From assembly GCA_021812345.1 (NCBI GenBank), contig JAKANP010000005.1:1-56359 (forward strand): a stretch of DNA of 56,359 nt, in the 5' to 3' direction. Below the pieces are notes generated by a model, which saw only the letters and a list, made by a program, of their open reading frames with translations, was not told where the DNA came from and searched no databases. The DNA is from a bacterium (GTDB lineage Bacteria > Patescibacteriota > Minisyncoccia > UBA6257 > JAGOQP01). Numbering within the stretch: position 1 is the first letter of the stretch; each line of letters begins with the position of its first letter. The translations under genes and the position numbers were made by a program. Below are positions 45,586 through 47,527 of the stretch, piece after piece.

Positions 45586-45664
45586 ATTAAAGAATAATCA
45601 AGGGTGACAATTTGAAAGCGTGCATGTATAATAATAATTGAAATTTTTTGATTTAAAATAAAAT

Positions 45665-46030
45665 ATGTCTTTCTTTATATTGGAAATATTTTTTTTCTTG
45701 AGTCTCGGGGCAATCGTGTTTTTGTTTGTCAAAAAATTGCCTTATGTGAGCGATATTCCCCAAAAGGAATTGAATGCCGGCAAATTAAGAAACAGCATAT
45801 TGAATTCGCAGTGGGTGGACAAATTAGACAGCAGGTTTGTTGATTTTTTATCCAAATGGCTCAGAAAAATGAAATTAGCGGTAATGCGTTTGGATAATTA
45901 TGTTTCCAGACATATTGAAAATATAAAACACCGAACTTCCAGAGAAAAAACAACTCAGAATATATTGAAAGAAATAGAAAGCGACGAAAAAATAGAAAAA
46001 AGGGAAGAAGGTGTTGAAAATAAAGATTAG
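45665..46030 (+). CDS. Hypothetical membrane-anchored protein
   Basis: N-terminal TM helix, charged tail. Confidence 0.7.
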   Translation: MSFFILEIFFFLSLGAIVFLFVKKLPYVSDIPQKELNAGKLRNSILNSQWVDKLDSRFVDFLSKWLRKMKLAVMRLDNYVSRHIENIKHRTSREKTTQNILKEIESDEKIEKREEGVENKD

Positions 46031-46036
46031 TTTTTT

Positions 46037-46107
46037 GCCAATGTAGCTCAGCTGGTAGAGCAACGCTAAAGTGTAGGTCACCGGTTCAAATCCGGTAGGT
46101 GGCCTCA
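46037..46107 (+). pseudogene. Chimeric pseudo-tRNA-Thr lacking the anticodon
   Basis: First 28 nt identical to tRNA-Thr(GGT) at 46789; 3' half resembles tRNA-Thr(TGT); anticodon loop deleted; acceptor mispaired. Confidence 0.8.
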
Positions 46108-46165
46108 GAAGCAATTAGATGACCACATTATTAACAGATAATGTGGTTTTTGGTATAATAAAAAT

Positions 46166-46753
46166 ATGAAAATATCAAAAAAATTATTAGAGCAACTTTA
46201 TTTAAAAGAAAAATTATCCGTATCTCAAATAGCTAAGAAACTTAATCGTTCCATAAGCGGAATTAATTATTGGATTGAGATATATAAGATTAAGAAAAGA
46301 ACCATAAGTGAAGCGATTTATTCAAGACATAATCCTAAAGGAGATCCGTTTGTTTTTGTAAAGCCAAAAAATCAAAAAGAATCTGAATTATTTGGGTTAG
46401 GAATCGGCTTATATTGGGGAGAGGGAACAAAAGCTAATAAAAATACAGTAAGAATAGGAAATTCGGATGTTAATATCATTAAAGTGTTTATAAAATTTCT
46501 TAAAATCTTCTTTGGGGTTTCTAAAGAAAAACTAAAGTTCCAATTGCATTTATTTGATGATTTGAATATAAGTGATGCCGAAAAATATTGGCTGGAGAAT
46601 CTTTTTATTAATAAAAATCAATTATACAAAACAATCGTCACAAAAAGTGGTTCTCTAGGAACATATAAGCATAAAAATAAATATGGTGTGATAACATTAT
46701 ATTACGGCAATACTAAATTAAGAAATATTTTAGTAAATATGTTGCCAAAGTGA
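46166..46753 (+). CDS. HTH plus single LAGLIDADG-like endonuclease-family protein
   Basis: N-terminal HTH (LSVSQIAKKLNRSISGINYW); LGIGLYWGEGTK followed by IGNSD...IKVFIKFL. Confidence 0.65.
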   Translation: MKISKKLLEQLYLKEKLSVSQIAKKLNRSISGINYWIEIYKIKKRTISEAIYSRHNPKGDPFVFVKPKNQKESELFGLGIGLYWGEGTKANKNTVRIGNSDVNIIKVFIKFLKIFFGVSKEKLKFQLHLFDDLNISDAEKYWLENLFINKNQLYKTIVTKSGSLGTYKHKNKYGVITLYYGNTKLRNILVNMLPK

Positions 46754-46788
46754 AAAAGTGATGATATTATTTATCTTGTAGAACTATT

Positions 46789-47050
46789 GCCAATGTAGCT
46801 CAGCTGGTAGAGCAACTCCATGGTGAATTTTTGCCCATTTCGACGGAAACGCCGAGACGAATCTCGAATTACGGTTAAAGGCCTTTCTCGGGTTAAGACC
46901 GTAGCGCTTTTGCGCTCGAACGACTGACAAGAGGAGCTAAACTTTTTTTAAAAGCATGCTCAATATACAGTCTAATCCTCTAATAGAGATTTTTTGAAAT
47001 AGAGGTATGAATGAAGGAGTAGGTCGTCGGTTCAATTCCGACCATTGGCT
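46789..47050 (+). tRNA. tRNA-Thr(GGT) interrupted by a group I intron (exons 46789-46824 and 47014-47050)
   Basis: The joined exons give GCCAATG/CATTGGC acceptor, ACTCC-AT-GGT^AA-GGAGT and GTCGG-TTCAATT-CCGAC. Confidence 0.9.
46825..47013 (+). ncRNA. Compact group I intron, 189 nt, after position 36 of tRNA-Thr
   Basis: Exon ends in U, intron ends in G; P7 GACTG/CAGTC in AACGACTGAC...AATATACAGTCT; ACGGTT/GACCGT stem. Confidence 0.82.
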
Positions 47051-47062
47051 CTGATAAATTTT

Positions 47063-47108
47063 AAAAATAAAAAAACGCGGAGTATGTATAGTACCGCGTT
47101 TTTTATTT
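47063..47108. terminator. Bidirectional terminator between the convergent tRNA-Thr genes
   Basis: AAATAAAAAAACGCGG...CCGCGTTTTTTATTT. Confidence 0.65.
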
Positions 47109-47109
47109 G

Positions 47110-47182
47110 AGCCACCTCCCGGACTTGAACCGGGGACCTTCACTTTACAAAAGTGTTGCTCTACCAGCTGAGCTAAGGTGGC
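47110..47182 (-). tRNA. tRNA-Thr(TGT)
   Basis: GCCACCT/AGGTGGC acceptor; CACT-TT-TGT-AA-AGTG. Confidence 0.92.
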
Positions 47183-47460
47183 TTTCTCTTTTCAAACATC
47201 AATAATAAGACTTAAGATTTTATTATTCTGAAGTTTTATTATGTGGGTAGGGTGAGAGTCGGCCTCGCCTCTGTCGCTCGCCGTCGCTCGCGCCAGGGAC
47301 TGACCACCGCCTCGCGCGCTCGTCTTATGACTCGCGCATGCTCCGAGCGTTCGCCTCTCACTTGAAAGCCAAGCAGTTGGCTTTCTCTTTTCAAACATCA
47401 ATAATAAGACTTAAGATTTTATTATTCTGAAGTTTTATTATGTGGGTAGGGTGAGAGTCG
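47179..47460. repeat. 83-bp direct repeat (47179-47261 and 47378-47460) around a 116-bp GC-rich insert
   Basis: TGGCTTTCTC...GGTGAGAGTCG occurs twice and includes the tRNA-Tyr 3' end. Confidence 0.92.
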
Positions 47461-47527
47461 AACTCACGCGGGCACATTGGCCAACGGTTTTACAGACCGC
47501 CCTCGGCCCCTACGAGACTACCTACCC
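47443..47527 (-). tRNA. tRNA-Tyr(GTA) with an atypical D-arm
   Basis: GGGTAGG/CCTACCC plus A73; GCGGT-CT-GTA-AA-ACCGT; long variable arm; GTGAG-TTCGACT-CTCAC. Confidence 0.85.

Follow-up and report, generated by a model that had tools for sequence, protein, structure and literature searches.

The window analysed here is a 56,359-nt stretch of DNA, contig JAKANP010000005.1 of assembly GCA_021812345.1. It is a low-GC contig of the Patescibacteria, or Candidate Phyla Radiation (CPR), from a genome of 725 kb in 27 contigs that is 100% complete. On its forward strand, a free-standing open reading frame (ORF) of 195 aa (46166-46753) encodes a helix-turn-helix (HTH) followed by a single LAGLIDADG domain, an assignment that draws on the ORF listing, an AlphaFold2 (AF2) model and fold comparison. 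The ORF precedes a co-oriented tRNA-Thr(GGU) gene that is split into a 5' exon (46789-46824, tRNA positions 1-36, ending with the anticodon GGT), an ORF-less group I-type intron of 189 nt between tRNA positions 36 and 37 (46825-47013), and a 3' exon (47014-47051). An intact tRNA-Thr(UGU) gene, called by ARAGORN and scoring 66.5 bits in Rfam, lies convergent with it on the reverse strand (47109-47182). An earlier note on this DNA, made from the letters alone, had pointed to a 30-bp repeat bracketing the gene, and an exact direct repeat is indeed found on both sides of the ORF (46035-46064 and 46787-46816), stretching to 39 nt at 90% identity. Its second copy is held by the 5' exon. Its first copy, made up of 2 nt and then nucleotides 1-28 of tRNA-Thr(GGU), provides the 5' half of a chimeric pseudo-tRNA (46037-46104), which is followed by a terminator-like hairpin (46121-46148; a 12-pair stem and then a T run). 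Here, we describe a comparative analysis of this ORF, its neighbouring intron and their relatives.

The HTH occupies approximately residues 1-45 of the protein and the LAGLIDADG domain approximately residues 60-195. The AF2 model (pLDDT, the predicted local distance difference test score, 88.4) displays the LAGLIDADG core fold, with one helix added between strands three and four. With residues 59-195 as query, the top VIA-align match was the TliVMA intein homing-endonuclease domain (Z 9.4, root-mean-square deviation 2.8, 85 aligned), and further matches included I-DmoI (6.5), E-DreI (5.8), WhiA (6.0, 5.4 and 5.2), I-Tsp061I (5.3) and intein HE II (5.2); besides the top match, six more LAGLIDADG entries stood within the first 28. 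The model and this comparison support the HTH-LAGLIDADG architecture proposed in the earlier note. Residues 1-45 match many HTH domains in VIA-align, the N-terminal 50 residues match phage 'HNH endonuclease' PHROGs (E 7e-5), and 5 of 40 family members weakly match NUMOD1. Judged by these matches, the HTH is a predicted DNA-binding module common to the 'HNH endonuclease' PHROG families. Residues 122-159 (46529-46642), within the LAGLIDADG domain, also gave weak matches to Pfam T4_Y03C (E 0.011) and to phrog_2192 (E 0.0089), a PHROG of unknown function.

The LAGLIDADG motif reads LFGLGIGLYWGEG, and in the AF2 model its glutamate, E86, closes the helix formed by residues 70-86. This Glu is invariant in all 141 sequences examined (81/81 orthologues and 60/60 paralogues), and the Gly that follows it is present in 81/81 orthologues and 59/60 paralogues. 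A homodimer model of residues 58-195 scored 0.70, against 0.00 for the best control. In calibration, 20 of 30 proteins with solved same-chain pairs attained that score, as did 1 of 23 with solved single chains; these counts apply only roughly because our own alignment was used. The dimer runs share at least 97% of their contacts, with a partner pLDDT of at least 84, and the predicted interface is the motif helix (residues 67-86), with symmetric contacts at residues 70, 73, 74, 77, 78 and 81. This result may merely reflect likeness to solved LAGLIDADG dimers. The protein is probably a homing endonuclease that works as a homodimer.

The default ARAGORN run misses the intron-bearing tRNA-Thr(GGU) and the pseudo-tRNA alike. 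With intron search, ARAGORN places tRNA-Thr(GGT) at 46789-47051, interrupted after position 36 by 189 nt, and the joined exons are identical (74/74) to the intronless gene of the same-genus genome G402. The secondary structure of the insert was drawn by eye on a MAFFT alignment of 48 homologous inserts. In P1, the exon GGU pairs with an invariant GCC, placing a U.G pair at the 5' splice site in 48/48 sequences with two G-C pairs beside it, and the last intron base is an invariant G. A P2 hairpin with GNRA-type loops, a P3/P7 pseudoknot, P4-P5-P6, P8 and P9 complete the structure. Across the 48 homologues, 94.0% of cells are paired, compared with 77.3% in shuffled and 31-44% in slid controls, and double changes occur in 29 of the 45 pairs in nine helices. 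P4 and P7 are uninformative because they are invariant, whereas all three pairs of P3 show double changes, including a C-G to U-A change in the window itself. This covariation supports a group I architecture for the insert, in line with the earlier note's description of a tRNA split at the anticodon by a group I intron. On some intron-bearing genes ARAGORN gave the labels tRNA-Arg or tRNA-His; these were rejected as the product of misplaced intron boundaries, all 49 genes reading ...TGGT at the anticodon.

Contigs assembled from individual sequencing runs bear on the integrity of the locus. Per-run contigs from three to four DNA runs of a single study, which possibly include the source sample of the window itself, cover 45600-46062 and 46038-46816 with no differences. 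The junctions are not peculiar to this assembly, since these independent per-run contigs match it throughout. Bin 46878-46948, inside the intron, has no cover in the DNA per-run contigs, and no inference was drawn from it. In four runs (X1-X4), contigs with loose ends at 46824 and 47014 pass from the 5' exon directly to the 3' exon. The community thus also contains intronless alleles that share this exon junction, probably in other organisms. No RNA run was listed as containing the locus.

The last codons of the ORF (TTGCCAAAGTGA, 46742-46753) equal the tRNA start (TTGCCAATGTAG; 46787-46798) at 9 of 12 positions, a resemblance that the earlier note had remarked upon. At 53 of the 73 orthologous loci scored with ARAGORN, the ORF and the tRNA gene overlap by exactly 10 nt, the ORF stop TAG forming tRNA positions 8-10. 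The ORF tail in the window is therefore a relic of the ORF-tRNA overlap rather than a chance resemblance, and the overlap also accounts for the conserved ...LLP[M/L/R/K] protein tails. The related loci L085 and L001 have the same relic and 35-nt spacer. Promoter-like sites occur at both ends of the ORF. The first (46131-46159), TTAACA and TATAAT separated by 17 nt with a TG, matches the consensus at 11 of 12 positions and is the best in the region, and TATAAT precedes the ATG in L085 as well. Its end and the ATG are 6 nt apart, with no Shine-Dalgarno-like stretch fitting into the gap, so the mRNA of the endonuclease gene may be leaderless. The second (46742-46770) lies on the relic, 18 nt before the tRNA; it consists of TTGCCA and TATTAT at the same 17-nt spacing with a TG (10/12 matches), and L085 has the same hexamers and spacing. 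Both sites would function as promoters, and the 12-nt relic and 35-nt spacer appear to supply a separate tRNA promoter in this lineage.

More than 600 homologues of the ORF are present in Patescibacteria records. Orthologous loci were taken as the best 80 of 298 relatives in a species-representative genome set. The ORF adjoins tRNA-Thr(GGU) in 79 of these 80 loci (76 found by regular expression, with L010, L041 and L046 added by ARAGORN), and the last, L004, is cut by the contig end 8 nt after the stop; the tRNA linkage of homologues, which the earlier note had suggested surveying, is thus nearly universal in this set. By intron state, 52 loci are intron-bearing (48 ARAGORN calls together with L014, L065, L074 and L080, in which the intron start is visible), 27 are intronless, including L021, L067, L010, L041 and L046, which we reassigned to this class, and 1 is undetermined. 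The gene has a patchy distribution. Among 401 evenly drawn Patescibacteria genomes, any family match was found in 88, with at most 8 matches per genome, and a close orthologue, defined by a score of at least 220 bits, in 18.

Paralogues of the ORF adjoin other tRNA genes. These were sampled from 16 places of our choosing, 40 consecutive rows of weaker matches, and extra paralogues in the earlier loci, leaving aside three partial frames and one open-ended frame. A co-oriented tRNA starts -45 to +160 nt from the frame end in 57 of 60 full-length closed frames, and 19 paralogues show the same 10-nt overlap. The linked tRNAs include Ile(TAT/GAT), Tyr, Gly(GCC/TCC), Ala(GGC), Ser, Phe, Trp, Val, Leu, Gln, Arg and Met. 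A quick maximum-likelihood tree was built from every fourth orthologue and from the tRNA-linked paralogues that cover at least 120 profile positions, 60 rows in all; in it, the proteins group by tRNA identity, with 15 label changes where the minimum is 14; shuffled labels gave a mean of 37.9 changes, and none of 200 shuffles was as low as 15. The Phe-linked proteins are not monophyletic, and within the Thr clade intron-bearing and intronless loci interleave. The putative endonuclease gene belongs to a phylum-wide superfamily, each clade of which lies directly 5' of one particular tRNA gene. No intron interrupts 50 of the 57 paralogue-linked tRNAs. Anticodon-loop inserts of 190-250 nt were observed in tRNA-Tyr, tRNA-Ser(TGA), tRNA-Trp and tRNA-Phe genes beside paralogous HTH-LAGLIDADG ORFs (L096 2627-2926, L097 1663-1937, L113 661-954, L118 631-962, L127 647-935, L131 1438-1720 and L138 1447-1766). 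The Phe inserts of L127 and L138 and the Ser insert of L113 pass Rfam Intron_gpI (60.7-67.2 bits), the tRNA-Tyr inserts score 44.9-47.0 bits, and the Trp insert and the Phe insert of L131 gave no Intron_gpI detection.

The relationship of the ORF to the intron was surveyed in the same 401 genomes with an exact intron pattern, derived from two invariant intron blocks, that matches all 48 aligned introns. The pattern occurs in 26 genomes. An intact ORF adjoins the intron-bearing tRNA-Thr(GGU) in 11, a frameshifted, stop-ridden or truncated ORF lies beside the intron in four (G233, G389, G036 and G349), and 11 carry the intron with no Thr-type ORF; seven others have an intact ORF and an intronless tRNA, and 368 have neither. 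An adjacent ORF or remnant accompanies 15 of the 26 intron-bearing genomes and 7 of the 375 lacking the pattern, which bears out the co-occurrence anticipated in the earlier note at a strength that is probably overstated, because introns linked to the ORF supplied the pattern and related genomes do not count as independent. Either element can nevertheless occur without the other. Ten fetched loci of intron-only genomes held no ORF remnant at E <= 0.01 within approximately 1.5 kb, and in the eleventh such genome, G018, just a Tyr-linked paralogue lies nearby; this ORF had been considered as a divergent orthologue and was rejected. In one of the 11 genomes with both elements, G337 (L151 1377-2396), the ORF, of orthologue grade at 252 bits, is found on the downstream side of the intron-bearing tRNA-Thr(GGU) and adjoins tRNA-Thr(CGU) instead, across an 11-nt gap.

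Close relatives of the window differ in both elements. The same-genus genome G402 (99% complete) has no family match, and G401, of the same genus and completeness, has only a distant paralogue elsewhere; in both, tRNA-Thr(GGU) is intronless. Within the same family, G404 (locus L085) and G411 (orthologue scoring 274.7 bits in a hidden Markov model search) carry the ORF and the intron, and G406 and G415 carry the intron alone. The gene order of L085 is Trp-Tyr-Thr(UGU)-ORF-Thr(GGU)::intron. In the window, the resident Thr(UGU), Tyr and Trp genes are inverted and lie downstream. The relative orientation of tRNA-Thr(GGU) and tRNA-Thr(UGU) also varies (L084, L086 and L090, compared with window 46789-47182), the two genes pointing the same way in G401 and towards each other in G402, G405 and the window, which suggests repeated small inversions at the Thr tRNA cluster.

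The pseudo-tRNA holds the place of tRNA-Thr(UGU) in L085 and L001, approximately 60 nt before the ORF start. It is 68 nt long and scores 39.3 bits against the Rfam tRNA model. Only 2 nt replace the 7-nt anticodon loop of a functional tRNA, the acceptor stem, paired in functional tRNAs, contains two mismatches, and no ARAGORN call is made. Its first 28 nt are identical to tRNA-Thr(GGU) (28/28, compared with 25/28 for tRNA-Thr(UGU)), whereas its last 36 nt, acceptor 3' strand included, fit tRNA-Thr(UGU) better (32/36) than tRNA-Thr(GGU) (26/36). A 37-nt inverted repeat (I1) of 89% identity relates it to the resident tRNA-Thr(UGU) gene. The join falls in a 21-nt D-arm stretch common to both Thr tRNAs, and the sequence running from the 3' half to the ATG, hairpin and -10 element included, has its homologue in the segment between tRNA-Thr(UGU) and the ORF of L085, where a homologous hairpin is found. 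The earlier note had described a damaged upstream tRNA-Thr copy without its anticodon; the loss of the anticodon holds, but the element is not a simple duplicate of tRNA-Thr(GGU). Because the chimera sits where the relative has tRNA-Thr(UGU), it looks like a recombination scar, one that would have arisen by recombination of a tRNA-Thr(GGU) 5' half with a Thr(UGU)-ORF-Thr(GGU) template.

The earlier note had further proposed that the cassette duplicates the 5' half of the tRNA. This is not a regular feature of the family, as an upstream copy of the first 12 nt of the tRNA occurs in only 2 of 72 other loci. In L011 (approximately 2343-2355) and L016 (approximately 2391-2401), an 11-13-nt relic of the tRNA-Thr(GGU) 5' end lies approximately 150 nt upstream of the ORF start, so that these two cassettes are flanked by direct copies of the tRNA start, and the remaining 70 loci have no such copy. 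The two relics suggest that insertion events duplicating the tRNA 5' end may occur.

Elsewhere in the tRNA cluster, a 91-nt direct repeat of 97% identity (47176-47266 and 47375-47465), which includes the last 24 nt or so of tRNA-Tyr and the spacer 3' of it, flanks an insert of approximately 108 nt that is GC-rich although the genome is AT-rich. In 7 of 30 relatives, copies of this insert with 74-81% identity lie at other positions, up to three per genome, and the predicted RNA folding of the element (117 nt) shows nothing unusual (z = -0.53 and -0.89). It resembles a small dispersed element inserted at the 3' end of tRNA-Tyr.

We consider it probable that the locus comprises two linked selfish elements, a free-standing putative homing endonuclease gene and a co-mobilised ORF-less intron. 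The putative enzyme would cut tRNA-Thr(GGU) loci that do not contain the gene, and repair from an occupied allele, with the flanking conserved tRNA genes as homology arms, would copy the ORF. Because the intron lies 36 nt inside the tRNA, within tens of bases, it would be co-converted with the ORF in a form of trans, or 'collaborative', homing. The cassette of the window would have been acquired or rearranged from a template of tRNA-Thr(UGU), ORF and tRNA-Thr(GGU), one end of the recombination falling in the D-arm stretch shared by the two Thr tRNAs and leaving the pseudo-tRNA and the 30-bp repeat as its scar. The patchy distribution of orthologues (18/401 genomes) and the decayed copies beside intron-bearing tRNAs count in favour of this reading, and the positions of the promoter-like sites, 6 nt before the ATG and 18 nt before the tRNA, fit a homing endonuclease.

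Several results weigh against two linked selfish elements. For the protein, Pfam gave no LAGLIDADG family at E <= 10 and only sub-threshold HTH matches, Foldseek against the PDB returned nothing at E <= 0.001, and PDB sequence and profile searches returned no LAGLIDADG chain; LAGLIDADG_3 is weakly matched by 3 of 40 family members (best E 0.004), with the cut-off not shown to be reached. For the intron, Rfam RF00028 (Intron_gpI) had no match in the window at E <= 10, which is why its architecture was examined by covariation, and among related Thr loci (two overlapping sets, 25 different loci) no Intron_gpI match was found in 20 at the gathering score and in 13 at E <= 10. No exact match to a donor for the 3' half of the pseudo-tRNA was found in metagenome contigs. 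Because occupied alleles keep the tRNA whole, the host would itself carry any target lying entirely within that gene, except where an intron splits it; in the 27 of 79 ORF-bearing loci that are intronless, the intron gives no account of how the host escapes self-cleavage. Finally, the protein is 55-60% identical across deep CPR lineages and some clades keep the gene without the intron, so that a host function would also fit.

A broader proposal, which we advance tentatively, is that the Patescibacteria hold an undescribed superfamily of free-standing, tRNA-fused HTH-LAGLIDADG genes, in tRNA-specific clades, that drives the spread of ORF-less group I introns. These genes would be fused in frame to the tRNA 5' end, with tRNA residues T8-A9-G10 as their stop codon, and each of their clades would be specific to a single tRNA species, at least 15 of these being represented. 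They would persist inside the tRNA transcription unit, the tRNA depending on the promoter of the endonuclease gene, and the RNase P cut at the tRNA 5' end would remove the last codons and the stop, limiting expression. The genes would be the engine by which ORF-less group I introns spread through CPR tRNA genes.

The earlier note had favoured strict collaborative homing, in which the enzyme would recognise the place in the anticodon loop where the intron inserts, the intron thereby shielding the host allele. The anticodon arm is the best pseudo-palindrome of the spliced tRNA, with 7 of 10 half-site positions symmetric around position 35; its centre lies one base from the insertion site, and such symmetry would be apt for a homodimer. 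The ORF and the intron tend to be found together, an ACTCC anticodon stem is found in 32 of 52 intron-bearing alleles and in 2 of 27 intronless ones, the empty alleles of the same genus have an identical anticodon arm, and collaborative homing is documented for phages (PMC3984707, in the portion of the text used here). Nonetheless, we regard this mechanism as rather unlikely. L018 and L028 possess the ORF and an intronless tRNA with the same ACTCC arm as most intron-bearing alleles, uninterrupted, an observation that also tells against the two linked selfish elements; introns are missing from 27 of 79 ORF loci and from 50 of 57 paralogue loci; and 11 of 26 intron-bearing genomes lack the ORF, with ten of the loci free of remnants at the depth searched.

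Rather than a mobile enzyme, the protein could be a domesticated LAGLIDADG host factor at tRNA genes, either a maturase aiding the folding of tRNA group I introns or a WhiA-like DNA-binding regulator of the tRNA that follows, that is mainly vertically inherited and no longer mobile. Its 55-60% identity across CPR classes, the intact ORFs beside intronless tRNAs (27/79 loci and 7 sampled genomes), the precise and conserved fusion to the tRNA start, which implies co-transcription, and the WhiA LAGLIDADG domains among the fold matches (Z 5.2-6.0) all agree with such a role, and LAGLIDADG maturases are known, one of them in a Thermotoga 23S intron according to the part of PMC3984707 that was consulted. 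We consider this explanation unlikely, given that the Glu at the catalytic position is invariant (141/141), the orthologue is present in only 18 of 401 genomes and was not found in two 99%-complete genomes of the same genus, decayed copies exist, and a genome may hold up to 8 family matches; moreover, as 50 of the 57 paralogue-linked tRNAs have no intron, a maturase role could not be general. It is very improbable that the upstream element is a decayed tandem duplicate of tRNA-Thr(GGU) or a repeat assembly artefact irrelevant to the arrival of the cassette: its first 28 nt are identical to tRNA-Thr(GGU), such repeats can misjoin contigs and unitig-style contigs break at the repeat, but its 3' part fits tRNA-Thr(UGU) rather than tRNA-Thr(GGU), the segment after it, with hairpin and promoter, has its homologue in the spacer between Thr(UGU) and the ORF in L085, and the per-run contigs across 45600-46062 and 46038-46816 are identical in three to four runs.

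The two linked selfish elements proposed here resemble several known systems in part. Neither LAGLIDADG genes adjoining tRNAs nor a group I intron in a CPR tRNA-Thr turned up in full-text searches of the literature, supplementary files excluded. That some CPR tRNAs carry group I introns is mentioned in a passing remark in the consulted part of PMC8172020. Single-domain LAGLIDADG enzymes such as I-ShaI are described from CPR rRNA insertions (PMC11270868, in which 'tRNA' has no occurrence in the main text). As far as the excerpted text of that article goes, they share with the window protein the phylum, the single domain, the expected homodimer and multiplication in structural-RNA genes; they are encoded inside rRNA introns or insertions and match Pfam LAGLIDADG_1/2/3, and no HTH is reported for them in that text. 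The window protein, in contrast, is free-standing, has an N-terminal HTH, falls below Pfam thresholds and adjoins tRNA genes.

Collaborative homing, as defined in PMC3984707, has been described in phages for F-CphI/psbA and for T4 mobE/I-TevIII (PMC3984707; PMC2790892, PMC6083498; text available in part). Each phage pair joins a free-standing endonuclease to an ORF-less or defunct group I intron; as in the window, the two co-occur, and co-conversion over tens of bases is plausible. The phage cases, in the portion of PMC3984707 consulted, involve protein-coding genes and non-LAGLIDADG enzymes, whereas the window presents a cellular chromosome, a tRNA gene, a LAGLIDADG protein and an ORF that overlaps the tRNA, and the identity of target and intron site is partly contradicted. 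Phage T4 SegB is likewise a free-standing homing endonuclease among tRNA genes that promotes inheritance of the tRNA region (PMC2330249, in part); it is a GIY-YIG enzyme of a phage, and neither ORF-tRNA overlap nor tRNA-specific paralogue clades are described in the portion of that article consulted.

The intron and the protein fold also have better-known counterparts. Group I introns in the anticodon loops of bacterial tRNA genes carry the subgroup label IC3. Like those of cyanobacterial tRNA-Leu and tRNA-fMet and of Azoarcus tRNA-Ile, as described in part of PMC3984707, the window intron is approximately 190 nt long, ORF-less and located in the anticodon loop. The likeness extends to the U.G pair at the 5' splice site, the terminal G, and helices P3/P7, P4-P6, P8 and P9; unlike them, the window intron lies between positions 36 and 37 of tRNA-Thr(GGU), has no RF00028 match and neighbours a LAGLIDADG gene. 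WhiA (DUF199), a LAGLIDADG-derived transcription factor found among the fold matches, also combines a LAGLIDADG fold with an HTH. In WhiA, two LAGLIDADG domains, both degenerate, precede an HTH at the C-terminus, whereas the window protein has its HTH at the N-terminus, a single LAGLIDADG domain and a motif Glu that is invariant.

A few phage systems are known in which a free-standing homing endonuclease mobilises an ORF-less intron; a comparable arrangement is seen here on cellular chromosomes, at tRNA genes, and across a whole family. If the proteins are active, they would constitute a natural panel of small homodimeric LAGLIDADG enzymes whose tRNA-gene target could be predicted from the neighbouring gene, and their activity would explain the group I introns of CPR tRNAs that are missed by standard tRNA finders and Rfam, an annotation problem in its own right. 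The overlap of the ORF with the tRNA raises the question of whether RNase P processing is coupled to endonuclease expression. Since close relatives display all four states, neither element, the ORF alone, the intron alone and both, active proteins would also make the origin of mobile introns, with the endonuclease first beside the intron and then inside it, directly testable within one lineage.

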